Shown: positions 2,159 to 61,215, counted from the first letter of the stretch. The stretch: 64,000 bases of DNA from Chiloscyllium plagiosum (GCF_004010195.1 NC_057718.1:101404629-101468628), one strand, 5' to 3'. Notes: generated from the letters alone by a model not told the origin. Made by a program: numbers and translations.

Positions 2159-2725
2159 AGAACAAAGCAGCCTGCTTGATTGGCACCACCACTCCCTTTA
2201 CCACCAGAGCTCAGTAGCAGCAGTGTGTACTATCTACAAGATGCACGGCAGAAATTCAGCAAAGATCCTCAGACAGAACCTTCCAAACCCATGGCCACTT
2301 CCATCTAGAAGGACAAGGACAGCAGCTAAATGTGGTAATACCACCCCCTGCAAGTTCCGCTCCAAGCCACTCACCATCCTGACTTGGAAACAGGAGAAGG
2401 TGAGGACTGCAGATGCTGAAGATCGGAGTCGAGAGTGCAGTGTTGGAAAAACACAGCAGGTCAGGCAGCATCCAAGGAGCAGGACGTTTCGGGCATAAGC
2501 CCTTCATCAGGAATGAGCCTGACCTGGAAACATGTCGTTGTTCTTTCGCTGTCACTGGGTCAAGATCCTGGAATTCCCTCCCCAAAGGCATAGTGGATCT
2601 ACCTACAGCACATGGACTGTAGTAGTTCCAGAAGGCAGCTTACTCCCACCTTCTCAAGGGGCAACTAGGACGGGCAATAAAAGCTGGGCCCAGCCAGTGA
2701 TGCCCAAGTGCCACGATTAAATAGA
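2159..2725 (+). mobile_element. 3' end of L2/CR1-group LINE, interrupted by a PLE fragment
   Basis: Reads NKAACLIGT...VCTIYKMH...KILRQNLPNP...SWNSLP, ending in gggcaactaggacgggcaataaaagctggg. Same family as 5028-5715, 27025-27300 and 43460-43740. Confidence 0.75.
2393..2517 (-). mobile_element. PLE family A fragment with intact minimal hammerhead core (2483-2510, minus)
   Basis: Reverse complement reads attc-CTGATGA-A-GGGC-ttat-GCCC-GAAAC-GTC. 15-bp TSD with 1 mismatch: cctgacttggaaaca 2378-2392 and cctgacctggaaaca 2518-2532. Confidence 0.8.
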
Positions 2726-2894
2726 AATTTTCATTACCTCCTTTTTGAAGCTACTTACAACCTACCTCTTTGACCAGGTTATTTATCATCTGTGCAAGTA
2801 TTTCCCTAACACTCTGATGAAGACCGTTGGGATGTTTTATCGTGTTAGAAGTGCTATTTAAATACGAATTGTTATGGTCACACACTGCAGTGAA

Positions 2895-3235
2895 AAGATG
2901 GCAGAGTGCAGATGTGACTGGATTATGAATCCACAAGTCTAGGCTAATGCCTTGGACCCGTGGATTCACACCCCACCACAGCAGCTGCTGGGAATTAAAT
3001 TCAATTAAATTTGCAGCATAACACTAATCTCAGTGACTATAGCAACTATCATTCCATGTTGTAAAAACCCATTTGGTTCAATACTGTCCTTGAGGGAATC
3101 CTTTTCCCAGTCTGTCCTTGATATGAATCCAGACCCCAGCTGAAATCGCCAGGGAACACACTCAGTTCAAAGGCAATTGGGAATGACACCAGTACCAACC
3201 TTTACGTGCAGTGCCCTATCTGTGAAAGTAATTCG
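2895..3235 (+). mobile_element. tRNA-derived SINE, family 2, degraded
   Basis: tgactggattatgaatccacaagtctaggctaatgcc...gtaaaaacccatttggttcaatactgtcc...aaggcaattgggaat, homologous to the clearer copies at 16760 and 47505. Confidence 0.6.
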
Positions 3236-3364
3236 AAAACAGAGTAGTGCACAGGACAATATTGAGAAACTGAGTTTGTTCTGGCTTGATACACATGTAA
3301 CTATGAGCAATGAGATTTAGAAATTGTGTCTGCACTGTCCATATTGAACAAGGCATCAAATAAA

Positions 3365-3555
3365 ACGGTAAAGTCCTCCTGGACTAGAGGGTAGCTGTCT
3401 CATTAGCGAGAGATGACTGATGGCTGTTTAGCCTGAGGGTCACCATACCTCAGGTGATGGGAAGGGTTGAGAAGGAGGTCACCTCAGCCAGTGCAGGAGT
3501 GGAACCCATGCTGTTGGCATCGCAAACCAGCCATCCAGCCAACTGGACTAACCGA
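3365..3555 (-). mobile_element. tRNA-derived SINE, family 4
   Basis: Reverse complement starts tcggttagtccagttggctggatggctggtttgcgatgccaacagcatgggttccactcc. Homologous to 32300-32500 and 57235-57395. Confidence 0.6.
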
Positions 3556-3742
3556 TCATTAACTGCATGGGAGGGTGTCAACCTGTCAAAAGTAACCTAA
3601 GCGATTGTTTTTGATCCAGTTTGTAAAGAAACAAACTTGTCAGTCAAATATTTGAAATGCTTCCAGTGGTTAAAAGATGCTTCTGATTGGAGGCTTCAGT
3701 TGTGTGGCTATTGTAGTAACCAAACTGATGTGTTACATACAT

Positions 3743-3863
3743 CAAAAAGTGTGGTGCTGAACACGCATGTCTTGTCAGGCAGCATCTGAGGAGAAGGAGA
3801 GTCAGGATAGCACCACACTCTTTAACTCTGATCTCCACCATCAGCAGTCCTCACTTCCTCCTC
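3743..3863. mobile_element. PLE family A short fold-back relic
   Basis: aagtgtggtgctg...gtcaggcagcatctgaggag then agcaccacactc...gcagtcctcacttcctcc. Flanked by ctgatgtgttacatacat and ctgacgtgttaggtacat (18 bp, 3 mismatches). Confidence 0.6.
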
Positions 3864-5027
3864 CTGACGTGTTAGGTACATTGTGTTGAGCTTACACACT
3901 CCTCGCATCAGCTTTAAGGTTTTGGTTATCAACGCGTGCAGTGGAATTGGTCAGTTGAAGCTGCACTCCCTATTTTTTTCTGTTTTAGACCACCTGTGAT
4001 GTTGTCCTTAGTACAAAGAGGTCTCCACTTGCCGGTGAGTAAGGAGTGGGCAGGTGCGCATTATCAAGCTACCTTCCAGTTGAGGTTTCAAAAGAAAAGA
4101 TCAAAGAGAACTTCTAAGATGTTTCCATGCCTGAAAGACAGAGCTTCTCATTCCAGGTTCTTTAAAAGCATTCTGAGGATTACCTGAGTTCGCACTCAGC
4201 TTAACCCTTTTTAGAAAATGCAGTTTATTATGGATTCTCTCAGGGACAACAATATTCTTTGAAATGCTTTGTTGAGGGCAGGCATGGTAACATTGGCAGT
4301 AGGGACTGGATCCTGAGAGACTTGAGGCAGAGTTATCAGCCGGGGTTTTTAAAAAGCTATCAAATCTAAGAAGTTATGCCAAATTTGTTTATTCCAAAAT
4401 ATTATTTATCATCTCAAATATACATCAAGAGCAACCTAATGAGTGTTGAATTGGCACTATAAAACATTTCATTACTGGAGAAATTGCATTACATACAGAG
4501 AATTTTGTATGAAAGTCAAAGCCATTAGTCACAGAACCTTCTGAACTTAATTAACGATCATTTCCAACTCAAAATGGGAGAGTGTTTTATTTCAGCATTG
4601 CATGTAATAAATTTATAATCCCATTATTCACAATAATTCTGTACACAACTACACAAAATAAACCATTCTGCCACTTTTGCAAATCCAATAAATATTTGCT
4701 AACACAGATTACTAATAAAGCCCATTTCGTTTCACAATATTCCCTTTACATCTGCCTTCTGTTGAGTGTCACTAAAATCCGACAAGTTTTTGAGAATAAT
4801 TGTGAGGGGATGCGTTACATCATATGCCATCTTATTGTAATCCTCAGTATGTCAGGCAACACCTGTGGAGAGAAAAGGGAAGGAAGAAAAGACTTATATT
4901 TACATTTCACGTCTCAGTCACCGAATGCCTCAAATACGTTCCAGCTCATGCATTATATTTTTGAAGTGTAGTCACTGTTGTTACAAAAAAGGTAATCCAT
5001 TTGCACACAGCAAGATCCCACAGCCAG

Positions 5028-5715
5028 ACACTGACTCCCCAAAGCCTGTCCATCATCGACAAGGCACGGGTCAGAGGTGTGAGGGAATATTCCCCACTTG
5101 CCCTGGATGGGTGCAGCTACAACAACACTCAAGAAGCTCGACACCATCCAGGACAAAGCAGTCCCCGATTGATTGGCACCGCATCCACAAACATCCACTC
5201 CCTCCACCACCGACGGTCAGTAGCTGCAGTGTGTACCATCTACAAGATGGACCGTAGAAATTCACCAAAGATTCTTAGGCACCACCTTCCAAACACATGA
5301 TCACTTCCATCTAGAGGGGCAAGGGCAGCAGACACCTGGGAACACCACCTCCTACAGGTTCAGAAACAGAAATTGTTGGAAAAGCTCAGCAGGTCTGGCA
5401 CCATCTATGAAGAGAAATCAGAGTTAACGTTTCAGGTCCAGTGACCCTTCCTCAGAAAGTCCAATTTGCAACATCCGCAGTTCTTTCAGTTTTTAACTCC
5501 TGCAAATTCCCCTTCAAGCCACTCATCATCCTGACTTGGAAATATATGGCAGTTCCTTCAGTGTTGCCTGGACAAAGCCCTGGAGCTTCCATCTGAACAG
5601 CACTTCAGGTGTATCTCCAGCACATGGACTGTAGCGTTTCAAGAAGGCAGCTCACCACCACCACCTCGAAGACAATTAGGATCAAGTAATAAATGCTGAC
5701 CCAACCCGCGAATAA
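5028..5715 (+). mobile_element. 3' portion of L2/CR1-group LINE, interrupted by PLE family B
   Basis: ORF 5001-5300 reads LTPQSLSIIDKARVRGVREYSPLA...HSLHHRRSVAAVCTIYKM, a LINE ORF2 C-terminus. The tail is ctcaccaccaccacctcgaagacaattagg...aataaatgctg. Confidence 0.8.
5360..5496 (-). mobile_element. PLE family B fragment with intact minimal hammerhead core (5426-5455, minus)
   Basis: Reverse complement reads CTGAGGA-A-GGGTC-actg-GACCT-GAAAC-GTT-aactc. Nested inside the LINE. Confidence 0.75.
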
Positions 5716-5734
5716 AAGATTATTTTATTTCGTA

Positions 5735-5990: not shown

Positions 5991-6084
5991 TGATGCTATG
6001 TTATTGACTTGAAATGGTCACAGATGCTCCCTAAGCCGCTGAGTGATTCCAGCAATTCCAGATTTCTGGCATCTGCTACATTTG

Positions 6085-7948: not shown

Positions 7949-8091
7949 GCAGGTAAATAAAAGCCAAAGTACTGCACATTGGAAATAAAATGAGAAAGAC
8001 TATAGAAACTCATTGAGTCTGGCAGCATCTGTAGTGAGAGAAAAACAGACCAAAACACCGGTGAAATAGTTGGAGATTTTATACTGTTGTA

Positions 8092-15754: not shown

Positions 15755-15960
15755 TTTTGATTATTTGATTTATTGTTGTTGTCGCATTTACCTAAGTACG
15801 GTGAAAAGTTTTGTTTTGCGAGCAGTACAGGCAGATTAGGACACACAAGGATGTACAGATTGTAGGGTGATTGAACGGAGTGAGGAATACAAGGTTACAG
15901 CTGCAAGGGAGGTGTAGTCATCTTTACAGACTTAGAAATGCAGAACAATTGCAAAAAACG
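15755..15960 (-). mobile_element. 3' tail of a Rex/Babar-like LINE or its non-autonomous derivative
   Basis: atttgatttattgttg...tacggtgaaaagttttgttttgcgagcagtacagg resembles the reverse complement of the tail at 22200-22280 (ttttcactgtgccttggtacacgggacaat...caaattcaaatt). Confidence 0.55.
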
Positions 15961-16480
15961 TGAGAATAAGACCTGCTGTAGAGAGTTGTCCTGTGTCGGC
16001 GCCATCTTGAGAATAAGACCTGCTTGTAGAGAGTTGTCCTGTGTCGGCGCCATTTTGAGAATAAGACCTGCTGTAGAGAGTTGTCCTGTGTCGGTGCCAT
16101 CTTGAGAATAAGACCTGCTTGTAGAGAGTTGTCCTGTGTCGGTGCCATCTTGAGAATAAGACCTGCTTGTAGAGAGTTGTCCTGTGTCGGCGCCATCTTT
16201 AGAATAAGACCTGCTGTAGAGAGTTGTCCTGTGTCGGCGCCATCTTGAGAATAAGACCTGCTGTAGAGAGTTGTTCTGTGTCGGTGCCATCTTGAGAATA
16301 AGACCTGCTGTAGAGAGTTGTCCTGTGTCGGTGCCATTTTGAGAATAAGACCTGCTGTAGAGAGTTGTCCTGTGTCGGCGCCAACTTTAGAATAAGACCT
16401 GCTGTAGAGAGTTGTCCTGTGTTGGTGCCATCTTGAGAATAAGACCTGCTGTAGAGAGTTGTCCTGTGTCAGTGCCTTCT
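15961..16480. repeat. Minisatellite, 11 tandem copies of a 47/48-bp unit
   Basis: Unit is tgagaataagacctgc(t)tgtagagagttgtcctgtgtcggygccatyt, contiguous with no spacers. Copies 2, 4 and 5 carry an extra T. Confidence 0.97.
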
Positions 16481-16759
16481 TGAATCAACATTTACCTGTT
16501 CGCTAAAATCAAGAGAATGATTGCCTGTGTCTCTTCGATGTATCTGTGAGTGAGCTTAAAGTAGGGCACGCTTGTGTAATTATATTGCATATTTTGTCAA
16601 GAAGGTTCATCTGACTTTTCAAAATAAAGACAGAACCTTAGAAAATGGTTTCCAGAAGTCACATGACTGTTCTTGTCCATGAATTGCAGTCTAAAAGCAG
16701 ACAGACCAACGTGTTAGCTCGGTGTCAATGACAACGGAGTTGTTTAGAATGAAACTAGG

Positions 16760-18835: not shown

Positions 18836-19600
18836 ACGAGTTTTGAGAAGATTTGTAGCTCAGGTTCTGAATGTAGGTTTGCTCACTGAGCTGGAAGATT
18901 CATTTTCAGACGTTTAATCACCATACTAGGTAGCATCTTCAGTGAGCCTCCGGATGAAGAACTGTTCATGATTCCTGTTTTCTATTTATATGTTTGGGTT
19001 TCTTTGGGTTGATGATGTCATTTCCTGTTCACTTTCTGAGGGGGTGGTAAATCGGGTCCAATCAATGTGTTTGTTGATGGCATTCCAATTGGAATTCTAT
19101 GCTTCTCGTAATTCTCGTGCGTGCCTCTGTTTGGCTTGTCATAGGATAAATGTGTTGTCCCAGTCAAAGTCGTGTCCTGAGAGATGGTCATGTCATTTTG
19201 TGGCTAGTTGATGTTCATCTCTCTCACTAATATCCTTATGTACAGATGAGGAAGGGCACCACTTCGACTGGGACAACACATCCATCCTAGGACAAGCCAA
19301 ACAGAGACATGCACGAGAATTCCTAGAAGCATGGCATTCCCGACCGGAACTCAACAAACACGTTAACTTGGACCCAATTTACCACCCCCTGAGAAAAAGA
19401 ACAGGAAATGACATCAGCATAGGAAATGGCATCACCACAAAAAAATGACATCACCAACCCAAAGAAACCCAAACATATAAATAGAAAGTAGGAATCATCA
19501 GCAGTGCTTTGTGCGGAGGCTCACTGAAGATGTTACCTAGTATGGTGACGAAACATCTGAAAATGAAGCTTCCAGCTCAGTGAGCAAACCTACATCCAGA
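18836..19600. mobile_element. Penelope-like retroelement 3' end in inverted (fold-back) arrangement, with GIY-YIG endonuclease C-terminus and hammerhead motif (family D)
   Basis: The plus frame from 19221 reads LSLISLCTDEEGHHFDWDNTSILGQAKQRHAREFLEAWHS...NKHVNLDPIYHPLRK, the HxFDW...IL...R..LEA tail of PLE GIY-YIG endonucleases. About 18866-19200 is an imperfect reverse complement of about 19260-19600. Flanks are tgtatgca and tgtataca. Confidence 0.85.
19521..19560 (+). ncRNA. Minimal type I hammerhead ribozyme motif (PLE family D)
   Basis: tca-CTGAAGA-T-GTTACC-tagtat-GGTGAC-GAAAC-ATC-tga. Stem II has 6 bp and stem I is UCA/UGA. The inverted copy near 18906-18944 keeps ACGTC but has TAAA in place of GAAA. 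Confidence 0.6.
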
Positions 19601-21200: not shown

Positions 21201-21324
21201 TTGAGCTTCTCTGTGCTACCCCACCATACACACTTTCCAATCTTGATCACCTCTAATTTTCCCAAGTATAAAGAACAAGGAAAGTCTATGCGTGCCTCTG
21301 CAAATGTAACAAAATAGAGGAAGA

Positions 21325-22280
21325 TTGGGGGCAATATTTCATCCTCACTAACACTGGAGCCCCCCAGGGGTGTGTGCTCAGCCCCCTACTGTACTCACTG
21401 TATACCCATGACTGCATCACCAAATGCCAGACTAATGCCATTTACAAATTCGCTGATGACACCACCATAGTTGGTCGAATTTCAGATGGCAACAAAACAG
21501 ACTACAGACGGGAGGTGGAAGACCTGGACAAATGGTGCACTGAGAACAACCTTGCTCTCAATGCCAGCAAAACCAAGGAACTCATTATTAATTTTCGGCA
21601 GGATGTTACATATGTCCCCTACACATTAACAGCACAGAGGAGGAACGAGTGGAGAGTGTCAAGCTCCTAGGAGTGGTCATCACAACAAGCTTTCTTGGAC
21701 TCTTCCATGTGGACGCACTGGTTACAAAGGCCCAACAATATCTCTTCTTCCTTAGGCCACTGAGGAAATTTGGCATGACAGTGGATACCCTTGCCAAACT
21801 TCATAGGTGCGCCATCGAGAGCATTCTGTTTGGATGTATCTCTACCTGGTATGGCAACTGTACCATTCAAGATCGGAGACGGTTACAGAGAGTGGTGAAC
21901 TCGGCCCGGACAATCACAAAGGCAAACTTCCCACCTACAGAATCCATCCACCAGGCCCACTGTCAAGGAAAGGCCGCCAGCATTCTCAAAGATCCATCCC
22001 ACCCTGGCAATGTTTTTCTACATCCTCTACCATCACGGAGAAAGTTCAGAAGTCTGAACACACGCACAGCTACTCTACTGCAGTTAGAATACTGAATGGA
22101 CTCACAAACTCTTAACATTCACCTGTACCTGTGTTTTTGTTTTTGCCGCTGCTGACCTATTATTTACTTATCTATGTTACTTAACTCTGTGATCTTCCTG
22201 TATTGCTTGAGAGACAAAATTTTTCACTGTGCCTTGGTACACGGGACAATACATTCAATTCAAATTCAAATTCAATTCAC
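21325..22280 (+). mobile_element. Rex1/Babar-type LINE, 5'-truncated, RT C-terminal half plus tail
   Basis: TGAPQGCVLSPLLYSLYTHDC...YKFADDTTIVG...LNASKTKELIINFR, then after a frameshift KAQQYLFFLRPLRKFGM...CAIESILFGCISTWYGNCT. Ends in an (attcaa)n tail. Confidence 0.88.
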
Positions 22281-25814: not shown

Positions 25815-26414
25815 TTGGAGTTTCTGGTGTTGGACTGGGGTGTACAAAGTTAAAAATCACACAACAGGTTATAGTCGAACAGGTTTATTTGGAAGCACTA
25901 GCTTTCGGAGCACCGCTCCTTTATAAGGTGGTTTTGGAGTATAAGATCATAGGACACAGAATTTAGAGTCATAGAGATGTACAGCATGGAAACAGACCCT
26001 TCGGTCCAACCTGTCCATGTCGACCAGATATCCCAACCCAATCTAGTCCCACCTGCTAGCATCCAGCCCATATCCCTCCAAACCCTTCCTATTCATATAC
26101 CCATCCAAATACCTCTTCACTGTTGCAATTGTACCAGCCTCCACCACATCCTCTGGCAGCTCATTCCACACACGTACCACCCTCTGTGTGAAAAAGTTTC
26201 CCCGTAGGTCTCTTATATCTTTCCCCTCTCACCCTAAACCTACGCCCTCTAGTTCTAATTGTGGCAACATTTATAGCACTATAAACGTTTGCTATAAATT
26301 CTGTCTCTTACGATCTTATACTCCACACCCACCTAATGAAGGAGCAGTGCTCCGAAGGCTAGTGCTTCCAAGTGAACCTGTTGGACTATAACCTGGTGTT
26401 GTGAGATTTTTAAC
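25815..26414. mobile_element. PLE family C fold-back element with a nested HER1 fragment
   Basis: Arms aagttaaaaatcacacaac...ggaagcactagctttcggagc and gctccgaaggctagtgcttcc...gttgtgagatttttaactt are inverted. Exact 12-bp TSD ttaataattgat at 25803-25814 and 26415-26426. Confidence 0.8.
25966..26257 (-). mobile_element. HER1/CR1 LINE 3' end nested in the PLE
   Basis: agagtcatagagatgtacagcatggaaacagacccttcggtccaac...ctctggcagctcattccacacacgtaccaccctctgtgtgaaaaag. Confidence 0.9.
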
Positions 26415-27782
26415 TTAATAATTGATGTAAATTTGGGTGGAATCTGCTGGGGGGAGTGGGTGGGTGGGAAGGTAGAGAATGAGTACATGAAAGCTTCCTT
26501 CTCAGCAGCTCCTGTATTTGTGGCTTGGCTTTGAATAATTGGCTTCCTTTCTCAAAAAGACCAACAGATGGTCTCTGCTTTTACAGAATATATATTGAGT
26601 CTATGCATGAGAGGTTTCTCATTGGTCTGCCAAAGTATTTAAATTATTCCAATCACCTGGTTCTGCATGGGCATGCGTTCTGTTGAATGTCAGACTTGCC
26701 ATTGGCTGAAAGTAGGCCAACTCTTCCCTCCGAATTCTCATCTTTAGAGTGGCTTTCTCAGTCACCTTTTTCACGTTTTTGTTCCAACACATTTTAGATG
26801 TGGCGGTTTAATTGGAATAAAAAGAGGGTCATCAGGTTGTGAGATTACATGGCACATTTGGTGGCCTGCGCAGTTTTCCTCTCGTTAAATTGTGTCGGAG
26901 GAAAGTTAGGGACAGCGTGCAGGATCACTTGCAATTGGCTAAAGAACCTGGTGAGCACATTTAAACAAGAGGTTGCAGTCTCCTGCAGTCTGACACACTC
27001 AGGCTCCTTGACCAGCTCCTTCCTACCCCATGACCTCTACTGTAAGGACAGCAGATACATGGGAACACCATCATCTGCAATCTCCCCTCCAAGCCCCTCA
27101 CTATCTCAACTTGGAACGATATCAGCCATTTCGGTATCCTGGAACTCTGTCCCGAAAGGAACTGTGGTGTACTTCCACCCCAAGCTTTGTAGTGATTGAA
27201 GAAGGTGACTCACTATCACCCCCTCCAGGGTAACTAGGGATCAACAAGAAAGATCGCCCTAAACCAGGGGCACTCACATCCTGTGGGTGAATTTTTTTAA
27301 AAAGACCATCACAACCTTATGGTGATTTTATTGAAATAAATGCTGCACTTCTCGAACATTCTTAGCTATATTTTATTGCCTGATGAAGAGAAATGGACTG
27401 CCAAGACATTATCACCCCACCTCCCCACTGGTGACATCCATCAGGAGGTTAGGACAATAGAAGTTTATGGAATTTTAGATTTTATACAGATGGCTGTCCA
27501 CTGTGATGTGAATGCTAGAAATCTGGAATAAAAGCAGAAAATGCTTTAAATACCCAGTGGGTGAGGCAGCAACTGTAGATCCTGTTAGGTGCCAGTTGAG
27601 TGACCTGATATGCACGCACCGATAATTTATTTGAAAAACATTTCCTCAAAAGAACACAGATAGTCCATGGAGCAGCCCAAAGGGTCACGTATAAACAGTG
27701 GAATTATGGTCATGTTCAACTGATCACATGACCCTAAGTAAACAAAAGTCCCCAACCAAGATGTTGTTTTGACCTCTTTCTT

Positions 27783-35565: not shown

Positions 35566-36324
35566 TTCTATACAATGATTTTGAAAATGCTGGCTTGCAA
35601 CATGTGAATGTATATTTGATTTGCTGAGATTGTTGTCTTGCCATATGGGGTTCCCCACCCCTCTTGTACAGAAGAACAACAGCAATGCAATGTCATATAT
35701 GCTCCCAAGGCTCTTTGCAGTATTCAACAGAAAGCCAAAGCAACAGACATCAGGAAAGATGACAAATTCTCGACCAAAAGACTATGCTGTATTTCAGATG
35801 CATCTCACAGAAATGTAATGATCCCAGCTGCTAGTAATTCTGGACCTAGGATCCCTGGCTTGATGGATCATGTATTTAATATTTTGCAGTTGGTTAACAT
35901 TGTTGTTATTTGCTGAAACTTAGTTACACAAGGCTGCAGGTGTCCTTTAACAACAGATCATAAGTTTATCACACAAAAGAAGGAAAAGAACAAAACTATA
36001 TGTAGAAGACAGAAAGATCTTAACTCAAACATTTAAATAACCTGTCCTACTGAGTGTTTCCAACATTTAGTTTCTTTTATTGAAGGAGACATTAGCACAA
36101 GTAGCCAAAAATTTGGCCAAGGCAAATAGTCATTGAGAAGGGAAACAGACCCTTCAGTCCAACTCGTCCATGCCGACCAGATATTCTAAACTAATCTAGT
36201 CCCATTTGCCAGCACTTGGCCCATATCTCTTTAAGTACTTCCTATTCATATATCCACCCAGAGACTTAATAAACGACATCTACCACTCTGCCTTCATCAA
36301 TCTTTTTGATTACTTCATTAAAAA

Positions 36325-36515
36325 TGTGTGTGTTAGGTGGATTGGCCATGTTAAATTGCCTACCATGTCCAGGAATGTGCAGGCTAGGTTGGCTAACCAT
36401 GGGAAATGCGGGGTTACAGGGATAGGATAGGGTTGGGTCTGGTTGGGATGCTCTTCAGAAGGGACAGTGTGGACTCAATGGGCCGAATAGCCTGCTTCCA
36501 CACTGTAGGGATTCT
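36325..36515 (+). mobile_element. HE1 V-SINE 3' half
   Basis: gttaggtggattggccatgttaaattgcc...gggccgaatagcctgcttccacactgtagggattc. Confidence 0.75.
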
Positions 36516-36737
36516 GATTGTTGAAGGAGGGAGTTCCAGGCCTCCGGGCTGGGCTGCTGCAGGCACAGCTTTCCAAAGTTGAGCAGTTAAGATAGGACAT
36601 GTCCAAGGGACCAAATGTGGATGAGTGCAGAGATTGTGGAAGGTATGGGATGCGAGTGGGTGGGGGGGGGTGTTGCTGAATCCTTCACACAATAAGCATA
36701 GTGAATACACATTAGCATAGAATCTGAAGTAGTTGCA

Positions 36738-36975
36738 ACTTTTTCACACAGAGGGTGGTATGTGAATGGAATGAGCTGCCAGAGGAAGTGGTGGAGGCTG
36801 GTACAATTACAATGTTTAAAAGGCACTGGATGGGTGTATGAATAGGAAGGGTTTGGAGGGATATGGGCCGGGTGCTGGCAGGTGGGACTAGATTGGGATA
36901 TCTGGTTGGCGTGGACAGGTTGGACCTAAGGGTCTGTTTCCATGCCGTACATCTCTTTAATCCTATGATTCTATG
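36738..36975 (+). mobile_element. HER1/CR1 LINE 3' end
   Basis: ttcacacagagggtggta...tggaatgagctgccagaggaagtggtggaggctgg...aagggtctgtttccatg. Confidence 0.88.
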
Positions 36976-41807: not shown

Positions 41808-42745
41808 AAGCCATAACTTCTAAGAGTAGAAGTAGGCCATTCAGCCCATTGAGTCTGCCCCACCATTCAGTGAGATCATGGCTGATCTGATAATCCAATT
41901 TCCTGCCCTTTTTCCCAATAACCCTTGATTCCCTTCCTGGTTAAAAATCTGTCCATCTCAGCCTTGAATATACTTAATGGCACAGCCTCAACAGTCCCCC
42001 CGTGGTGAAGAATTCCACAGATTTACTTCCCTCTGAAAAAAGGAATTCCTCCTCAGGGGATACCCCTTCATCTGGGCTTGTATACCCTTGAGTTTCGAAG
42101 ACTGAGAGGGGATCTGATTGAGACGTATAAGATTATGAAAGGATTGGACACTCTGGCAGTAGGAAACATATTTCCACTGATGGGTGAGTGCCGAACCAGA
42201 GGACACAGCTTAAAAATACGGGGTAGACCATTTAGGACAGAGTTCAGGAGAAACTTCTTTACCCAGAGAGTGGTGGCTGTGTGGAATGCTCTGCCCCAGA
42301 GGGCAGTGGAGGCCCACTCTCTGGATTCATTCAAGAAAAAGTTGGATAGAGCTCTCAAAGATAGTGGAATCAAGGGTTATGGAGATAAGGCAGGAACAGG
42401 ATACTGATTAGGAATGATCAGCCATGATTATATTGAATGGCGGTGCAGGCTCGAAGGGCTGAATGGCCTACTCCTGCACCTATTGTCTATTGTCTATGAT
42501 ATCCCTCTGGTCCTAGACCCTCCTACAATGGGATGCAATCTTTCAGAATCGACATTGCCAAGCTTCCTAAGCATCTTGCTTGTTTCAATAAGGTCGCCTC
42601 TCATTCTTCTAAACTTCAAAGAGTGCAGGTCCAATCTCGTCAATGTCTCCTCATAAGAAAATTCCTCCCTACCTGAGATCAACCGAGTGAACATTTTCTG
42701 GCCTGCCTCCAGTGCTGGTATTCCTTTCCTTAGATAAGGGAAGAT
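41808..42745. mobile_element. Minus-strand CR1 3' end interrupted by a younger plus-strand CR1 3' end (~42072-42497)
   Basis: Inner ORF 42078-42407 reads LYTLEFRRLRGDLIETYKIMKGLD...RTRGHSLKIRGRPFRTEFRRNFFTQRVVAVWNALP with a (tattgtc)n tail. The outer copy is seen in ORFs 41988-42206 and 42494-42823. Confidence 0.88.
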
Positions 42746-43785: not shown

Positions 43786-44307
43786 CAAAAACAGAAATTG
43801 CTGTAAAAGCTCAGCAAGTCTGGCAGCATCTATGGAGAGAAATCAGATTAACATTTCAAGTCCAATGACGATTGGGTTCTGAGGAAGGGTCATTTGACCT
43901 GAAACGTTAACTCTGATTTCTCTTCACAGATGATCCAGACCTGCTGAGCTTTTCCAGCAATTTCTGTTTTTGTTTCTGATTTCCAGTATCCGCAGTTCGT
44001 TTGGTTTTTAGATTAGATTAGATTACTTACAGTGTGGAAACAGGCCCTTCTGCCCAACAAGTCCACACCGACCCACAACCCAGCCAGACCCATTCCCCCA
44101 CATTCCCCTAACACTATGGGAAATTTAGCATGATCAGTTCACATAACCTGCACATTTTTGGACTGTGGGAGGAAACCGGAGCACCCGGAGGAAACCCACG
44201 CAGACACTGGGAGAACGTGCAAACTCCACACAGTCAGTTGCCTGAGGCGGGAATTGAACCCGGGTCTCTGACGCTGTGAGGCAGCAGTGCTAACCGTGGT
44301 GCCCAAC
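43786..44307. mobile_element. PLE family B fold-back (43786-44009) plus nested HE1 SINE (44010-44304, minus), inside one TSD
   Basis: Inverted arms aaaaacagaaattgctg.aaaagctcagca and tgctgagcttttccagcaatttctgttttt. Exact 13-bp TSD tgagttgctgcaa at 43773-43785 and 44308-44320. Confidence 0.85.
43874..43913 (+). ncRNA. Minimal type I hammerhead ribozyme motif (PLE family B), intact core
   Basis: GGGTT-CTGAGGA-A-GGGTC-attt-GACCT-GAAAC-GTT-AACTC. Stem I is 5 bp, stem II is 5 bp, and stem III is the palindrome ACGT. Confidence 0.7.
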
Positions 44308-45307: not shown

Positions 45308-45720
45308 TAAAAACACACAGCACCAGGTTATAGTCCAGCAGGTTTATTTGGAAGCACTAGCTTTAGGAGCGTTGCTCCTTCATCAGGTGGTTGGAGAGTA
45401 TAAGGTCGTAGGACACAGAATTTATACCAAAAGTTTACAGTGTGATGTGACTGAAATTATATATTGAAAAAGACCTGGATTCTTTGTTAAGTCTCTCATC
45501 TTTTAGAATGACCATGTTGGTTTCAGTTTTTTCACATGTAAATCCCAGAACTTTCTTCAAATTACATTCTCAAGTGAACTTTAACAATTGGTGCGATGTC
45601 GGCCCAGATAATGCATTGAGGTGCCCTGTGTGAGGCTGTCTGTGCCACAATGTTCAGGCTGATTCTAATCTAAAAAAGGGGTTTACAAAATTTTACATGG
45701 ATTCATGCAGTTTTTGAGCA
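45308..45720 (-). mobile_element. PLE family C, longer 3' region
   Basis: caccaggttatagtccagcaggtttatttggaagcactagctttaggagcgttgctccttcatcaggtgg. The hammerhead on the minus strand has TAAA in place of GAAA, and about 330 bp of upstream element sequence follows. Confidence 0.7.
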
Positions 45721-49169: not shown

Positions 49170-49750
49170 AGTGGAGATGCTGGTGTTGGACTGGGGTGGA
49201 CAAGGTCAGAAGTCACATGACACCAGGTTATAGTCCGACAGATTTATTTGGAAGCAGTGGCTTTCGGAATTATACCCTGGTGTTGTGTGATTTTTTAACT
49301 TTGTATACCCCAGTCCAACACCGACACCTCCAAATGTAGAGAGATCAAAAGATCATGCAAATGGTGTGAGTGGAGTGTAAGATAATAAGTCTCTGCAGGT
49401 GACTAAAAGTGTCAGATGATGTGAGTAAATTGTGAACAGCAATAACAAGTGAAGGGATGACCTATAATCCGATGAAATGAGACCGAGAGATAATTACAAA
49501 AAATTAAATGTAAGGCAGTGCTGGAGACAAACCAAATGACTGGAATAACATGATAGGTATCAGAGTCACATGCCAAAGTAATTAGTAATTTCCAAAACCG
49601 TACAAACTAATTAAGGTAGAGAGTTTAAAACAATTTATCAAGAAGCTGGTGTCAAAACAAGGCAGTAAGGAAGATTTTACAGGTACAGAACGGTTTGGTG
49701 ATGTCACATGTAGCACAACGTGAATCCGAGATCATGTCTGAGGTCACAGG
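49170..49750. mobile_element. PLE family C fold-back (49170-49335) and probable adjoining PLE 3' region on the minus strand
   Basis: tggagatgctggtgttggactgggg...caccaggttata and tataccctggtg...ccccagtccaacaccgacacctcca are inverted arms. Confidence 0.65.
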
Positions 49751-51190: not shown

Positions 51191-52427
51191 GGTGAACCGT
51201 GCAGAGCAGACTCTGGACTGACAGTGCTCGACCAGATACACGGCTATGAGGGATGGCGGTGAATTCTGGGATTTCACCTGAGTGACGAGTTGTTGAGGGA
51301 ACGGAATGAGGATAGGTCATCAACGAGGTGAGTTGGATGAGAGAGAACCCACGAGGTCTCATGCTAACAGAGCTTCCAGAAACACAATGTAACTCAGACT
51401 TAGACAAGGGAGAAGGGAGATTCAGCTCCATATTTTAATTGCCCACGGCATGATTGATCCATTGGAGATTACGGATTCTTCAATGTCCAATGACACAAAA
51501 TTGAAAGTAGAAAGGCAGTGACAATTCTAATTCTGTTGAGTTGTTTTGAGCTGTCTTTCTTCTGTAATGTGTTGCCATGTATCTCCTCAGGCTGCAGGGT
51601 TGTGGCAGGGTATTGTTCAAAGCCAGAAACAATGGGTGGTCCTCCTTGCTTAGTGACAGTCACTCCAAAACTCATTCACTGTGGCTGTTCCGGTGCCATA
51701 TCAATGCAAGGCATTTTTTTCCTTTTCCTGCATTCATTCAATGTTTTCTTTTGAAATAGATTACTTTCTGGTGTGTAATGGCTGCAGGCAAGAACACTTT
51801 TTGTCTGTTCCGCGTCACAAAATGATTCTAATTAGTTGCTACTGTACCAAGGCAGAGAGATGTCGGGTTAGGAGAGTGCAATTTGCTGAGCAAATGAATA
51901 CTTCTTTCTCCCTGTGTGTGTCAAAGTAGTTAGGGAGCAAGCTGCATAGTTTGTCAGTAATTATAAACATGTCATTTATCAACCAGAGCTTTGTCAATGC
52001 AGGAAACAAGATGCTTTTCCTGTTGTTGTTTCTTTGGTCACTTCCTTTAGTTGTTTGTACTCCCATTGTGTCCATTATAGCTGTGCTGGATGTTGGATGC
52101 TGGATGCTGGATGCTGGATGGGCAGACCCTTACCTTAGATCTGCAGGGCAGAGACTTTCCATTTCATACTTGTTGCAAAATTGAAAGTTATTTTCTTATC
52201 AGTACATGATTACATGATGCAAACCTTTCTACACAGTGCAGTCATTCTGAACCATCCATTCCCTTTGATGTCCTTACCATGGACATCGAGTGCCATCTGA
52301 TTGTCCTGTCATAAATTAAGGTGGTTTTGTGAGGGAATGTGCATTGCAAACAATTTCTCATTGACTGTTCCTCCAAGAGAATCCCGCAAATGTTGCCATA
52401 TGAAAATGGAGCAAAGTTCGACTATTT

Positions 52428-52747
52428 GGGCGGCACGGTGGCACAGTGGTTAGCACTGCTGTCTCGCAGCGCCAGAGACCCGGGTTCAGTTCCCGACTCA
52501 GGCGACTGACTGTGTGGAGTTTGCACGTTCTCCCCGTGTCTGCGTGGGTTTTCTCCGGGGGCTCCGGTTTCCTCCCACAGTCCAAAGATGTGCAAGTCAG
52601 GTGAATTGGCCATGCTAAATTGCCCGTAGTGTTAGGTAAAGGGGTAAATGTAGGGGTAGGGGTATGGGTTGGTTACGCTTCGGCGGGTCGGTGTGGACTT
52701 GTTGGGCCGAAGGGCCTGTTTCCACACTGAAATTAATCTAATCTAAT
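52428..52747 (+). mobile_element. Full-length young HE1 V-SINE
   Basis: gggcggcacggTGGCACAGTGGttagc (A box), GGGTTCAGTTCCC (B box), V-domain, gggccgaagggcctgtttccacactg and a (taatc)n tail. Confidence 0.93.
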
Positions 52748-52844
52748 TACTGGAGAAGGGCTTACGCTCAAAACCTTGGCTCTCCTGCTCCTCGGATGCT
52801 GCCTGACTGACTATGCTATTACCAGCACCACACTTCTTGACTTA

Positions 52845-53118
52845 GAATCTACAGCCCATCGAAACCAGACCACCCTTTTTAAAGAGCATTCCATCCCATC
52901 CCTGTAACCCTGCATTTCCCCTTGGCTAACCCACCATGGGACAACTTAGCATGGCCAATCCACCCGAACCTGCACATCTTTGGGTTGTGGGAGGAAACCC
53001 ACGCAGATGCGGGGAGAATGTGCAAACTCCACGCAGACAGTTGCCTGAGGCTGGAATCAAACCCAGGTTCCTGGTGCTATGAGGTATCAGTGCTAACCAC
53101 TGAGCCACCGTGTCACCC
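52845..53118 (-). mobile_element. HE1 V-SINE, tail-to-tail with the preceding copy
   Basis: ttagcatggccaatcc...gtgcaaactccacgcagacag...gtgctaaccactgagccaccgtg. A PLE family A fragment (52750-52842) lies between the two SINEs. Confidence 0.85.
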
Positions 53119-54339
53119 AGTTGAGGTGGGCTCATTAAGTACATTCAAGGCTGAGATTATTTGATTTTTAATCAGTGATGGAGTTGAGGGTAATCTCATT
53201 GAATGGCGAAGCAGATTGGTTGGGAAAGATAGCCTGCATCTGCTCCTGCATCTTATAGTCTGAGCTCTGGAGCAGGTGGGACTTGAACCTGCACCTCCTG
53301 GCTCAGAGTTAGGGATGCTACTGCCATGCTGTCAGAGCCGTAAACTCGACAGGGTGTATGTTCAGGAAAATAAACGCTGACACAGCACCACCCTGTTTGA
53401 CCTTGAAGGAAGAGTCCCATTTCATTCCTTGCTTTCCCTTCAGCAGCTTCTTCAGAGATCTGCTCAGCTGTGCGACCCTGTAGCATTCTTTGTCACTTGC
53501 TTGGAAGGCTTCCGAGTATGATTAATGTCCATGAAACCAAAATCAATATTGCGTTTGTTGAAATTGTAAGCTAAATAGATTAAATGGACTCACTGTGATG
53601 TACTGCTCCTTTTTGGCTTGACTTGTCCTCTGTCCCATGATTAAAGGCTTCTCAACATGTAAAGGATTACGTGCTTTATTTCCCCGGCCTCCCACTTTGC
53701 TCCGCACAGGTTTATAGATAAATAAAATGTGGGGAAAGTTCATAAAATTCTCGTTGGAAGGGACCTGGAAGTATCCTGCTTTCTCTCTCTTTGGGCTTTC
53801 AGTCACTGAGGGCCATCAATCACTCTGATTCTGTGGAGTTAAGAAAACGATTAACGGAATGGGTTTAAGCAGCAGTAATACCAAGACGCTGCTAAATGTC
53901 AGACCCAATCATACACTCAGACAAGGTGAATTAATTATCAATGGTTTTAACTTTTATTATGGGGAGAATTGAATATTAATAATGAACTCATCCATCCGTG
54001 AGCCAATTTACACTGAAAGTAATGCATTTCAGTGATGCATACGCTCCTGAAAAAGTCACCTGTCTGCCTGGAAGGTGTAGAATTAGCACTGACTAACATT
54101 TCCAACCTCCTATACTCTCAGAAACAACACTTGATCCTAAAGCATTGTTATTGATCTTTGCGAGTGAGCGCTCCCTGTACCAGCTATTGGGGAAATATAC
54201 TGTAACGCATTGCACTGGATCATATTGCACCTCTCCTCACTTATAAAAGCAACCTTTTCCAGTTTGACAAAGGTGCTGACGCCTCCACAATTACGGCTAA
54301 GCATCCCCAGCTACATGCAAATCCCTTTCGACAAGACCC

Positions 54340-57407: not shown

Positions 57408-57616
57408 GAGTCGAAAAGTGTGGTGTTGGTAAAGCACAGCAGGTCAGTCAGCATCCGAGGGGCAGGAGGGTCAGGAGCTACTGGTACATTCCTGATGAAG
57501 ACCTTACGCCTGAAACATCGATTCTCCTGCTCCTCGGATACTGCCTGATATGCTGTGCTTTTCCAGCAATACACTCTCAACTCTGACTCCAGCATCTGCA
57601 GTCCTCACTTTCTCAT
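57408..57616. mobile_element. PLE family A fold-back with degenerate hammerhead (57492-57519, plus)
   Basis: aagcacagcaggtcag.cagcatccgagg and cctcggatactgcctga...tgctgtgctt are inverted. Core reads CTGATGAAGACCTTACGCCTGAAACATC. Flanks are agaatgagtctt and agaaagagtctt. Confidence 0.75.
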
Positions 57617-57624
57617 AGAAAGAG

Positions 57625-58999: not shown

Positions 59000-59230
59000 T
59001 CTTTTTCTTTCATGAGGGTTTCTCTAGCCAGACCAGTATTTATTGCCTCATCCGTAATTGCCCAGAGGGCAGTTAAGAGTCAACCACATTGCTGTGGGTC
59101 TGGGGTCACATGTAGGCCAGACCAGGTAAGGATGGCAGATTCCTCTTCTCAAGGGCATTAGTGAACCAGATAGGTTTTTCAGTACAATCGGCAATAGGTT
59201 TATGGTCATAATTAGACTCTTATTTCCAGA
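59000..59230 (-). mobile_element. tRNA-derived SINE, family 2
   Basis: ccagtatttattgcctcatccgtaattgcccagagggcagttaagagtcaaccacattgctgtgggtctggggtcacatgtaggccagaccaggtaaggatggcagatt. Confidence 0.8.
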
Positions 59231-59454
59231 TTATTAGATCCCCTTGCAGCGAAGGTGCTGGATTGCTAATACAGAGCTCTGCACTGATTCAGTGGTGTTG
59301 TGAAAGATAACTGAGGAGCAGCTTGGAGGCACAGTGTGATGGAACTTGCAGTGTCATGGATAGGACAAGAGCTAGGATCCTGACTGCAGGCTGGCACTAA
59401 ATGTAGGCTCCATTCCCTGTCGCATTGTGGTAGGTCAGTTCGAAACTAATCTCG

Positions 59455-59820
59455 GTGACAATGGAGCTTGCATCAATTGGTGTAACAACCCATTTGGTTC
59501 ACTCTTGCCTTCCTTATCTGCCATCCTTATCTGGTCTGGCCTACACAAGACTCCAGATCCACTGCAATCCATGGTTGTCTCTGAACTGCCCTCTGAAATG
59601 GATTCAAAAGCAGAAATTGCGAGAAAAGCTCAGCAGTATCTGGCAAAATCTGTGGAGATTTTCCAGCAATTTCTGTTTTGGTTCCTAGTTTACAGCATCC
59701 TCGGTTTTTATTTTAAGGTTTTCACTCCGTAATGGGCTAGCGGGCCATTCACTTCAAGGGGCAGTTAGGGATGGGCATCAAATGCTGGCCCTGCCAGTGA
59801 CATCTGACACCCCATAATAA
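59455..59820 (+). mobile_element. Family-2 SINE interrupted by a PLE family B mini fold-back (~59603-59715)
   Basis: The SINE ...actgccctctgaaatgg is interrupted by caaaagcagaaattgc...gcaatttctgttttg and resumes aatgggctagc...gggcagttagggatgggcatcaaatgctggcc. Confidence 0.7.
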
Positions 59821-60629
59821 AAACAAGGGAGAAGTTGGCTGAAGAGAGACGTTCTCAGAAACCTCGGGCTATTTTGCCTGTCCTTTATCTTGACTGTATT
59901 TCGTATGTAGGATACCTGGACAGGGGGAAGAGAGAAATTAGTGACCGAAACATATAATTGTCTTATGTTTTGGGAAAGCAGATCTCAGGATATAAGAACA
60001 CATAAAAAAAACAGGCGTACGCAGGAGTGTTGGTTAGCGTCACGAAATACATTGAAGTGCTTGTTAGAAAATTAAAACCAATCTGCTTTGAACCTCAAGC
60101 TTGAGTGAGCTGCTGTTACTGCAGCCTTCCGAATGTTCTCATTTCCAGAATCAGCAGTCTCTCTGATCTCCCTCAATGAGATTGCCAATTTAGCATCAAT
60201 TTATGTTGAATTGCAGGGGAATAGGGTTGGGGCTGCCAGAACAGATTCTGTGATCGAGATTTTTAATCCCATTACTGTGCAAGACTTCTGTCGAGATTTT
60301 CACAAAGGACAGAGTGTCGCCGTGTCTGAAAAATAAACAAAGCAAGCTAAATTTGTCATGATTACAAAGCTCTGTTTTCTTGGATGCTAAATTGAAGTGT
60401 GATGAGGTCAGAATGCCTTGTCTCACTGTCTTTGACCTTGCATTGCAATCCAAGACAACAGGCTAAATCTGTGCTGGGAATGCAGAAACTCAGTACACAT
60501 GAGACACAAAGGACTGATAAAGATTATGTATAAAAACAAAATACTGTGGACTCTGGAAATTGGAAGCATGCACAGTGAATGCTGGAAGAACTGAGCAGGT
60601 CTGGCAGCACCTGTAGAGAGTCTCGCTGA

Positions 60630-60837
60630 GGAGATGCCAGTGTTGGACTGGTGTGGACCAAGTTAAAAATCACACAACATCAGGTTACAGTCCAACAGAT
60701 TTATTTGGAAGTACGAGCTTTCGGAGCACTGCTCCTTCGTCAACAACCTGTTACCTGATGAAGGAGCGGCGCTCTGAAAGCTAGTGCTTCCAAATAAACC
60801 TGTTGGACTATAACCTGATGTTGTGCCATTTTTAACT
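60630..60837. mobile_element. PLE family C fold-back
   Basis: agttaaaaatcacacaacatcaggttacagtccaacagatttatttggaag and cttccaaataaacctgttggactataacctgatgttgtgccatttttaact are inverted arms. Confidence 0.82.
60752..60786 (+). ncRNA. Minimal type I hammerhead ribozyme motif (PLE family C), intact core
   Basis: TAC-CTGATGA-A-GGAGC-ggc-GCTCT-GAAAG-CTA-GTG. Stem III is the palindrome AGCT and stem I is UAC/GUG. Confidence 0.68.
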
Positions 60838-60851
60838 CTGAAGAAAGTGTG

Positions 60852-60886
<35 letters not shown>

Positions 60887-60992
60887 CAGACAGAGTTGAC
60901 ATTTCGAGTCCAGTCCGACTCTTCTTCAGAACAATGAGTAGTTTGTGTTATTCTGTGCAAAGATCTGTTGAAGCAATCACATTTGAACAAGG

Positions 60993-61215
60993 CAAAAGTG
61001 AGGACTGCAGATGCTGGAGATTAGAGTCAAGATGAGAGTGGGGCTGGAAAAGCACAGCAGGTCAGGCAGCATCTGAGGAGCAGGAAAATCGACGTTTCGG
61101 ACACAAAGCCTTCATCATTCCTGATGGAGGGGTCCTGCCCGAAACGTCGATTTTCCTGCTCCTCGGATGCTGCCTGACCTGCTGTGCTTTTCCAGCCCCA
61201 CTCTCATCTTGACAC
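60993..61215. mobile_element. PLE family A fold-back with hammerhead remnants on both strands
   Basis: About 61027-61100 is nearly the exact reverse complement of about 61139-61213. Flanks are ttgaacaagg (60983-60992) and ttgaacgagg (61216-61225). Confidence 0.85.

Follow-up and report, generated by a model that had tools for sequence, protein, structure and literature searches.

Minimal type I hammerhead ribozymes have been known in Penelope-like elements (PLEs) since 2014 (Cervera and de la Pena, 2014, PMC4209133), and the sequence-only reading of the present locus had treated this as established. The motif class described there in metazoan PLEs combines a type I core with an extra nucleotide that sits after position 9 and before 10.1, a G10.1-C11.1 pair, a palindromic 15/16 helix III and a short helix I, and it occurs mostly as single truncated copies and in opposite-strand pairs. 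Insertions of canonical EN+ PLEs have been described qualitatively (Craig et al., 2021, PMC8557442; Arkhipova et al., 2013, PMC3846280). They show an adjacent inverted arm with 5' truncation, an optional tail of 30-40 bp at one end, a pLTR and a variable target duplication; TATA- and Inr-like motifs were noted in a rotifer pLTR, and self-priming on an antisense template was proposed. For Poseidon PAc of Anolis (Frangieh et al., 2024, PMC11167929), two internal start sites of the reverse transcriptase (RT) define the tail, both strands are cut and extended, the RNA template is uncleaved and the ORF starts at or just after the ribozyme. In that work the two start sites showed no difference between strands, and the later steps were left open. 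Non-LTR retrozymes (see also PMC7229834) are head-to-tail arrays of non-coding repeats with PLE-derived type I hammerheads, including one chondrichthyan with a mean unit of 363 bp (10.64898/2026.07.22.740005).

Many of these traits recur or appear to recur in the shark Chiloscyllium plagiosum. The explanation that we judge best, and quite probable, is that its repeats are the terminal repeats of four PLE families with a minimal hammerhead, and that the abundant short stumps are likely cDNAs of an uncleaved leader.

Hammerhead motifs in the window and in the genome

The window, i.e., the whole stretch of 64,000 nt analyzed here, holds 38 family arms. The ribozyme core is covered in 21 of them, so the earlier count of more than 15 intact or decayed motifs stands. 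The following features were annotated:

2397..2517, minus: family A arm (Neptune-type PLE end), tailed, 5' end at -7; hammerhead 2483-2510, 3' strand of helix I deleted
5364..5457, minus: family B arm, untailed, 5' end at -2; hammerhead 5426-5455
18845..19218, minus: tailed inverted arm of family D that spans the stretch from within the endonuclease code through a decayed hammerhead; approximate outer end
19219..19600, plus: family D sense arm (Poseidon-type) with endonuclease end, 3' UTR/promoter, hammerhead and short end
19239..19445, plus: GIY-YIG endonuclease reading frame, C-terminal fragment; no Pfam match alone, longer copies match PF01541 below the curated cut-off
19476..19481, plus: TATAAA box, -48 from hammerhead C3; putative promoter
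19524..19557, plus: minimal hammerhead of family D with a decayed helix III palindrome
25816..26416: inverted pair of family C, its arms 25816-25968 (minus) and 26277-26416 (plus) separated by about 300 nt
43787..44011: family B head-to-head pair; short arm 43787-43869 (minus), tailed arm 43877-44011 (plus), hammerhead 43879-43908 (plus)
45309..45720, minus: longer family C copy, extending to -338 in the 3' UTR
49172..49331: head-to-head pair of family C, each arm cut short within the ribozyme or behind it
57417..57617: family A head-to-head pair, hammerhead of the plus arm decayed
60630..60840: family C head-to-head pair; tailed arm 60630-60742 (minus), short arm 60753-60840 (plus), hammerhead 60755-60783 (plus)
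60793..60798, plus: family C AATAAA poly(A) signal at +38..+43; use of the site behind it seen for copies of the family in one RNA run, not for this copy
60898..60929, minus: B-related hammerhead with GAGTC/GACTC stem II, palindrome decayed, adjoining a microsatellite
60983..61225: head-to-head pair of family A, with its tailed arm at 60990-61117 (minus) and its short arm at 61113-61216 (plus)

The last pair is flanked by 10-nt target duplications (60983-60992 and 61216-61225, one mismatch) and forms a single long hairpin in the fold prediction. All hammerheads reported from the sequence were recovered at their positions, and the B-related one at 60898-60929, for which no strand had been given, lies on the minus strand. 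A strict descriptor (core, stem II of at least 4 bp, Watson-Crick palindrome and NUH) has 4 matches in the window, against a mean of 0.03 and a maximum of 1 in 200 block-wise dinucleotide shuffles; omission of the palindrome gives 6 matches against 0.30. The Rfam hammerhead families have no match in the window at gathering thresholds. A palindromic helix III, as claimed before, is a feature of the families (ACGT in A, B, U and D, AGCT in C), but not of the D copy (A-C-A-T) and the B-variant copy (A-T-G-T) of the window, a loss that fits CpG decay. In the main group of family D, ACGT is retained in 62/62 strict matches, the descriptor itself demanding the palindrome. Two traits were absent from the architecture first described, namely helix I (3-4 bp, covarying) and the stump nature of most copies, which are often joined head to head. 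In the window A copy at 2483 the bases 3' of the cleavage triplet are lost, and helix I is therefore gone.

Random sampling of 761,494 bases yielded 41 strict matches versus 0.1 in shuffled sequence, all 41 with the extra nucleotide, which also follows A9 in 273/273 strict matches from all fetched DNA. Extrapolation from 761 kb puts the number of arms in the genome at about 1.1 million, and most copies are stumps 85-135 nt long. Descriptor-intact motifs are estimated at about 190,000, 84,000 of them with a helix I of at least 3 bp. About 4,000 and 9,000 motifs were counted in coelacanth and Xenopus (PMC4209133), but the descriptors differ and these numbers are therefore not like for like. No shark is named in the searched parts of that text and its supplement.

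The motifs contain the parts of a minimal type I hammerhead: CUGANGA and GAAA boxes, NUH triplet, 3-8 pair, short helix I and loopless palindromic helix III. The majority stem II of every family opens with G-C (G10.1-C11.1), H17 is never G among the family majorities, and the catalytic positions are all retained across the four diverged families. Between subfamilies the core is invariant while N7 and loop II vary, and helix I covaries (ATTC/GAAT, AGTT/AACT, AGCT/AGCT, CAC/GTG, TCA/TGA versus CCA/TGG). Helix I contains a U-U mismatch in one large subfamily of A, and many single copies are decayed. A U3-A8 subfamily is present in 1,499 exact copies of a 28-mer (control 0); it represents a compensatory change of the core 3-8 pair in an amplified subfamily. 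The same variant was described in Schistosoma (PMC4209133).

Identity of the repeats

The proposal that these repeats are ribozyme-bearing PLE termini is borne out by linkage to RT and GIY-YIG endonuclease, a tail running into the ORF start, inverted arms, tails and target duplications. Endonuclease code lies directly upstream in all four families (copies with upstream peptides: L030 for A; L052 for B; L077 for C; L005, L009 and L019 for D). Fragments of D match Pfam GIY-YIG with E values of 6e-4 to 0.03, below the curated cut-off, and those of A and C gave no match to it. The closest proteins carry RVT_1 and PF26215 domains, and two close proteins (P0002 and P0045) read through into the hammerhead region. 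RT linkage in the shark genome was examined in family A only, where the tail lies 2.2-2.5 kb downstream of the RT DKG motif in 12/12 fetched RT copies and a hammerhead is present at 11/12 of these loci. The family A tail runs on into the ORF start (L406, L437, L435, L103), in the order hammerhead, tail, ORF start. Thus a terminal repeat stands before and after the ORF and overlaps its start in family A, as in a pLTR; continuity from tail to ORF is known from this family only, and a complete repeat-ORF-repeat copy was not seen. The arms show the structure of EN+ PLE insertions, with an inverted 5'-truncated arm, an optional one-end tail of 30-40 nt and target duplications. It is almost certain that they are PLE termini with genuine minimal hammerheads.

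A CX2-5CxxC linker before the endonuclease is found in Neptune/Nematis and absent in Poseidon (PMC8557442). Copies of A (L028, L316) and of C (L077) have this zinc-finger linker, the single B copy read (L052) has a degenerate form of it, and D lacks it. By this motif, which does not separate Neptune from Nematis, A, B and C appear to be Neptune-type and D Poseidon-type. The four families had been described as having dissimilar flanks, which does not apply to A versus B: both have a common tail of 30-35 nt with 84-90% identity and similar endonuclease peptides, and are relatives.

The repeats are not non-LTR retrozymes in the array sense, since we found 8 same-strand neighbours within 400 nt among 233 arms, in contrast to 59 head-to-head pairs. 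Two internally deleted tandem two-unit copies, with units of 328 and 334 nt, are exceptions.

Paired arms and 5' ends

Among 174 insertions, 115 are single arms and 59 are head-to-head pairs, with no tail-to-tail pair. Each family has two fixed 3' ends, tailed (long) and untailed (short), and exactly one arm is tailed in 53/59 pairs (p about 1e-10 versus 0.5); the other 6 are long+long or short+short. In 16/52 pairs the short arm outreaches the long arm on the 5' side by more than 15 nt, in one of them by about 880 nt. Junctions and arm lengths vary from copy to copy. Target duplications of at least 7 nt occur in 39/57 cases versus 8.6 in shuffled flank pairs. Allele discordance between the arms of a pair is 20/279 (0.072) in family A, for which random pairing gives 0.378 and background 0.057, and 7/26 (0.27) in family D, nearer to random (0.39) than to background (0.07). 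Both arms of a pair derive from one subfamily, the alleles of D being often discordant, although gene conversion could also be the source of arm similarity.

These pairs may arise as follows. The endonuclease would cut both strands 8-18 nt apart, and the two DNA ends would prime reverse transcription at a pair of internal start sites separated by 30-40 nt. Both would likely use a single RNA (twin priming). Each cDNA would run off at the RNA 5' end, slightly trimmed, and the two would then be joined head to head. Stumps are likely run-off cDNAs, made by the RT as it copies the uncleaved 5' leader and ends at the transcription start, and long copies would come from priming at the downstream repeat. 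L1 twin priming would be alike in that the second nick primes on the same RNA and leaves an inverted piece with microhomology at the junction; the two L1 cDNAs cover different parts of the RNA, the second site being variable. In the shark pairs, however, both arms cover the same RNA part from two fixed sites. In contrast to the Anolis PAc work (PMC11167929), the genomic pairs show each end using a different one of the two sites.

Twin priming on one RNA seems to us an even call. The main competitor, plausible but with a smaller share of our confidence, is that the arms stem from two RNAs on an asymmetric protein dimer, or from fold-back of the first cDNA (self-priming, PMC3846280), gene conversion afterwards preserving the similarity of the arms. 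For the PAc protein, dimerisation is predicted and extension of both strands was described (PMC11167929). Certain junctions (L140, L091) resemble tight hairpins, and the discordance of D arms points in the same direction. Palindromes are also prone to conversion. However, fold-back from a tailed cDNA cannot yield a short arm that extends further 5', and two independently primed RNAs would predict that about half of the pairs are long+long or short+short. The data are compatible with a dimer whose subunits have one fixed site each and which binds two RNAs of the same locus. That the short palindromes are an independent MITE- or SINE-like non-autonomous element, transposing as a unit, would suit their small size, inverted arms, target duplications and very high copy number. 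It is very improbable and largely refuted by the variable junctions and arm lengths, the one-sided tail, the many single arms and the identical ends that continue into PLE coding sequence in long copies.

The 5' ends of the arms form a pile-up of about tenfold at a point that differs between families, about 30 nt behind a TATA-like box and 4-18 nt ahead of the core. The truncation hazard is 0.062 per nt at -10..+7 versus 0.004-0.008 elsewhere (end points from local alignment, uncertain by 1-3 nt). For the 499 non-targeted arms, the number of ends is 114 at -3..+2 around the inferred start, compared with 16, 5 and 6 for the bins upstream of it and 68, 36 and 20 for those downstream, the start positions having been set from the same kind of data. 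Family D has the TATA-like box at -48 and family C at -40, while in B, U and A its position is -35/-37; it was seen in 2/3 (B) and 2/5 (U) long copies, and A has only TTTATCT (3/5 long copies) in place of the TATAAA of the others. The median short end is at -16 in D versus -4 to -6.5 in the other families (p < 0.001; four of the 24 short D ends have one common flank and are hence not independent), while C (-6.5) does not differ significantly from A, B and U (p 0.35-0.58). With a TATA-type promoter in the terminal repeat, transcription would begin at about -18 in D, -8 to -10 in C and -4 in A, B and U, and the transcript would therefore have the ribozyme as its first structure. For A, B and U this start falls on the first base of helix I, so that promoter and ribozyme structure are told apart only by D and, weakly, by C. 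In one poly(A)-primed RNA run, reads extend upstream of the inferred start and no transcript 5' end was observed. The arrangement is not universal, since the internal promoter of D. virilis Penelope is TATA-less and an intron precedes the ribozyme there (PMC2377424, PMC4209133).

We consider it likely that the pile-up marks the transcription start. Stalling or breakage at the upstream edge of a folded or protein-bound hammerhead would be an unlikely source, even though the A, B and U ends cluster on the helix I 5' strand, C has no statistical shift, and the D arms of the non-targeted set, 14 of which lie in the pile-up, have ends there at -16..0, a smaller shift than in the pattern set. The D pile-up begins at -18, 15 nt upstream of the D helix I and 30 nt behind TATAAA, and the profile, sharply bounded upstream, shows a trimmed tail on the downstream side. 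A polymerase travelling 3' to 5' on the RNA is expected to stall before a structure, not after it.

Cleavage, poly(A) sites and meaning

No excess of 5' ends was found at the cleavage site (14 ends versus 18 and 16 in the neighbouring 6-nt bins). In the RNA run there was no sign of cleavage: read depth is flat across the site and polyadenylated reads span it. We infer that the template RNA is uncleaved, in agreement with PMC11167929. Isolated monomers fold no better than shuffles in 4/6 cases, and C favours another fold. The predicted ribozyme may be selected only in active master lineages and would likely cleave only with help (dimer or element protein), the putative cleavage not being the template-making step. 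Each of these observations would also suit a motif kept as a protein-binding fold or for promoter or start-codon overlap, which never cuts in the animal; likewise, 8/9 Xenopus dimers showed no cleavage (10.64898/2026.07.22.740005) and catalytic mutants did not affect insertion in vitro (PMC11167929). We give this little credence, given the catalytic positions kept in four diverged families, the compensatory 3-8 change in an amplified subfamily and the lack of G at H17; moreover, the anole PLE motif cleaves when the protein is present (PMC11167929).

In family C, a poly(A) site just behind the ribozyme is used by family copies in one RNA run. The C repeat thus seems to have an LTR-like order: TATA, start, hammerhead, AAUAAA, poly(A) site, tail.

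The motif class, including extra nucleotide and palindromic helix III, and the pairing of ribozyme and PLE are not new (PMC4209133). Added here are the copy estimate, the U3-A8 subfamily count, the family C poly(A) site, and the 5'-end and arm-pairing maps, which the cited parts of that paper do not contain. Compared with PMC8557442 and PMC3846280, the one-tail rule is counted (53/59), fold-back fails in 16/52 pairs and the ends pile up about 30 nt behind a TATA-like box. A joint reading, somewhat short of an even chance, is that the genome holds about a million read-outs of insertion, with a TATA-driven start before the hammerhead, both ends priming on one uncleaved RNA at two fixed sites, and a family C promoter-ribozyme-poly(A) unit whose roughly 200,000 copies supply host poly(A) sites. 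If true, two fixed priming sites on one RNA would explain both the inverted repeat and the one-sided tail. At stake are the origin of inverted repeats and one-sided tails, the RNA start and the purpose of the hammerhead in PLEs (PMC3846280, PMC8557442, PMC11167929), for which the shark genome predicts starts at -4, -9 and -18, one RNA with two primers and an uncleaved template. A hairpin-forming or poly(A)-signal-bearing short insert about every 4-5 kb of a vertebrate genome would have consequences for repeat annotation and transcript ends in sharks.

Hammerhead motifs and their assignment to Penelope-like elements

All six motifs quoted in the sequence-only reading were found in the window sequence, in family A (2483-2510, minus strand), B (5426-5455, minus; 43879-43908, plus), the B-variant (60898-60929), C (60755-60783, plus) and D (19524-19557, plus). 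A strict descriptor matched 4 sites in the window, where 200 shuffles gave a mean of 0.03; with a relaxed descriptor the numbers were 6 and 0.30. The Rfam hammerhead families at gathering thresholds gave 0 matches there. More than 15 motifs had been claimed; the window holds 38 family arms (copies of the terminal-repeat end), of which 21 cover the core. Of the quoted copies, those of D and the B-variant have lost the palindrome of helix III. Dissimilar flanks were proposed for all four families, which does not apply to A and B: these have tail sequence (the optional 30-40 nt at the 3' end) and endonuclease similarity in common and are therefore relatives.

A random sample of 80 stretches of 10 kb at round coordinates of large contigs comprised 761,494 non-N bases. 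It contains 41 strict C3-G8 motifs against 0.1 in 20 shuffles, all with the extra nucleotide and 18 with a helix I of at least 3 bp. In a larger set of fetched sequence (1.66 Mb, enriched through the searches themselves), 273/273 strict matches carry the extra nucleotide, and the three helices covary from one family to the next. A subfamily related to B has the 3-8 pair switched to U-A and helix I changed along with it; one U3-A8 28-mer occurs in 1,499 exact genome copies (control: 0). Positions are counted from hammerhead C3 as 0.

Loci of the U3-A8 B-related subfamily (U) elsewhere in the shark genome
L251-L280 (G000:C1); L105, L132, L133: helix I AGCT/AGCT, TATAAA box at -35/-37

Among the copies, N7 and loop II differ by subfamily. 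Core and tail decay alike, with no extra core conservation in inserted copies (non-CpG sites 93-99% in both), which argues for selection on master elements and not on inserted copies. Monomers have weak predicted folds (z +0.1 to -2.1), and a palindromic insertion is predicted to form a single hairpin of -180 kcal/mol with the motif buried.

The random sample yielded 174 insertions with 233 arms in all (A 122, B 52, C 50, D 9). Extrapolation from these large contigs to 3.56 Gb gives ~0.8 million insertions, ~190,000 descriptor-intact motifs and, with a bootstrap range of 0.88-1.30 million, ~1.1 million arms. Exact-pattern genome counts are hard floors (A 3,612, B 189, C 2,449, D 388). For whale shark introns, a PLE expansion is mentioned in 10.1101/443036.

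The identity as PLE termini is supported by long copies elsewhere in the genome, which in all four families have GIY-YIG endonuclease code upstream of the terminal repeat. The D copy of the window starts within the last part of such a reading frame; a Pfam search of the window's endonuclease fragment gave no match. A cysteine linker, described in PMC8557442 as a trait of Neptune/Nematis that is absent in Penelope/Poseidon, is present in A, B and C and absent in D. The closest database proteins are from Chiloscyllium, Stegostoma and Hemiscyllium, with at most 86% identity, and carry RVT_1 and PF26215, which points to a carpet shark as the likely host; in two of the entries the reading continues into the hammerhead region. 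Among family A RT copies with long flanks (n=12), 12/12 have the A tail and 11/12 the A hammerhead at a distance of 2.2-2.5 kb downstream of DKG. The tail runs on into the ORF start in four loci, and hammerhead and tail are therefore a 5' leader as well as a 3' end. Family C sequence was found in sequencing runs of four organisms, A and D in runs of three. None of the runs listed for C was recorded as RNA, which does not bear on expression.

A first look at genome G000 gave 16,032 candidates for the N-terminal part of the family A RT, with 91-96% identity to a Chiloscyllium protein in the best of them. Open frames of more than 880 codons are common among those listed, and parts of long family A loci read N. 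The annotated Chiloscyllium MAP3K7 isoform X3 (P0055) ends in a family D-like endonuclease fragment, which suggests exonisation or mis-annotation. L103:9120-9734 and L159 represent another Poseidon-type subfamily, which is more diverged and differs in its 3' UTR and in stem II. At L213, L375 and L393, a D hammerhead adjoins the tail end of an A arm without a gap, at a short CTCA word common to both, which may reflect nested insertion or between-family template switch. The window also contains other repeats, and at least one of its inverted-repeat structures includes a family A arm.

Other repeats in the window
21272-22095 (+), 62725-63291 (-), 35046-35438 (-), 42009-42407 (+): fragments of other LINE-type elements
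21272-21667, 62725-63288: RVT_1 matches in the LINE-type fragments
15895-16484: tandem repeat region with open frames on the minus strand
52427-53119, 36141-36941, 41828-42475, 59063-59595: further structures with inverted repeats, 500-800 nt long

Distribution of 5' ends and the poly(A) site of family C

The truncation hazard of the arms is 0.062 per nt at -10 to +7, compared to 0.004-0.008 in five other intervals. For copies chosen by exact patterns, with a short end defined as -30 or later, the medians of the short ends are -5 in A (24/30 copies), -4 in B (27/30), -6 in U (25/30), -6.5 in C (16/30) and -16 in D (24/90). The D ends differ from every other set (p < 0.001); those of C do not. 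Long copies carry TATAAA-type boxes at -48 (D, 39/64), -40 (C, 12/14), -35/-31 (B, 2/3) and -35/-37 (U, 2/5), and family A has TTTATCT at -37 (3/5). In each family the upstream edge of the pile-up lies ~30 nt behind the TATA-like box. The Penelope element of D. virilis has a TATA-less promoter with an intron (PMC2377424).

We infer from these genomic copies that the pile-up probably marks the RNA start. Among 499 non-target arms (identity at least 82%; duplicates, edge-cut and N-adjacent arms removed), 6, 5, 16, 114, 68, 36 and 20 ends fall into successive bins through this putative start. The predicted cleavage site has no peak of 5' ends in the random sample or in this set, where 14 ends fall at the site against 18 and 16 in the neighbouring bins. 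Two observations on D run counter to the start-site reading: its non-target ends are less shifted (-16 to 0), and one flank is common to four of its ends. The latter also bears on the idea that the pile-up is due to subfamilies with divergent upstream sequence, which was dismissed since the upstream flanks of single copies in the random sample are unique save one pair. The AG in front of the B core was considered as a splice site and rejected because it is kept in most copies and nothing upstream is in common. The BLAST top matches of family B showed a GGG at the 5' end, as if non-templated or cap-derived; neither the random sample nor the pattern set has it, and it is a query artefact. Directly downstream of the ribozyme, at about +35 to +50 (e.g., window 43915-43930), the tails of B and U contain a polypyrimidine tract, a CAG and then an ATG, similar to a strong 3' splice site.

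In family C, 24/30 copies have AATAAA (12) or ATTAAA (12) at +38 to +43 with a GU-rich stretch behind. The poly(A)-primed single-cell run X20 (one sample, ~2% read, from an organism that may not be this species) yielded 2,811 reads on a C copy, 1,088 of them with poly(A) after +55 to +58, a position without A-rich DNA. The reads stem from several allele sets and their depth is flat across the cleavage site. Run X21 gave 0 reads, which says nothing on expression. No poly(A) site in A or D was seen among the loose ends listed, the A piece having ended before the tail.

Head-to-head arms and comparison with known systems

Arms of the random sample are paired head-to-head in 59 cases and tail-to-tail in 0. 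The 3' end takes one of two positions in each family, and the 30-40 nt between them are the PLE tail. A tailed and an untailed arm are combined in 53/59 pairs, against 5 short+short and 1 long+long (p ~1e-10 vs independence); the sole long+long pair belongs to D, whose reference ended before the tail. Target duplications of at least 7 nt flank 39/57 pairs, compared to 8.6 in shuffled flanks. Allele discordance between arms is lower than at random in A (0.072 vs 0.378), B (0.071 vs 0.395) and C (0.119 vs 0.364), and the agreement is weaker in D (0.269 vs 0.390, 10 pairs).

Self-priming of the first cDNA (fold-back) could be considered for such pairs. In 16/52 pairs, however, the short arm exceeds the tailed one by >15 nt on the 5' side, and fold-back from tailed cDNA cannot produce such an arm. 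Two RNAs on an asymmetric protein dimer may instead be the source of the paired arms. In PMC11167929, RT starts at two internal sites in vitro and both strands are extended on uncleaved template. Double priming on one RNA seems to be the simplest joint reading of the pairs and these in vitro data: both target ends would prime on the same RNA, one per start site, and both cDNAs would run to its 5' end.

The ribozyme features of the shark families all match the minimal type I hammerheads of PMC4209133. The families belong to this known kind of PLE ribozyme and stand in canonical PLE insertion structures (PMC8557442, PMC3846280). They are not retrozyme arrays except for two deletion tandems of 328-334 nt. 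These are internally deleted family A units at L103:2139-2715 (334 nt) and L437 (328 nt) with two direct hammerheads each, the former also with an inverted arm and a target duplication. Such units could form the dimer in cis and resemble retrozyme seeds.

Our literature search, with most subscription journals and Repbase/Dfam outside its scope, found no report of hammerheads in shark PLEs, of PLE twin priming or of a poly(A) site in PLE terminal repeats. Nor did it find the start-site pile-up or a count behind the one-tail rule; shark entries may exist in subscription journals, in Repbase/Dfam, in supplement file 1 of PMC4209133 and in the bioRxiv supplements. The shark families are ordinary as a ribozyme finding, and they are a useful, testable handle on PLE insertion.
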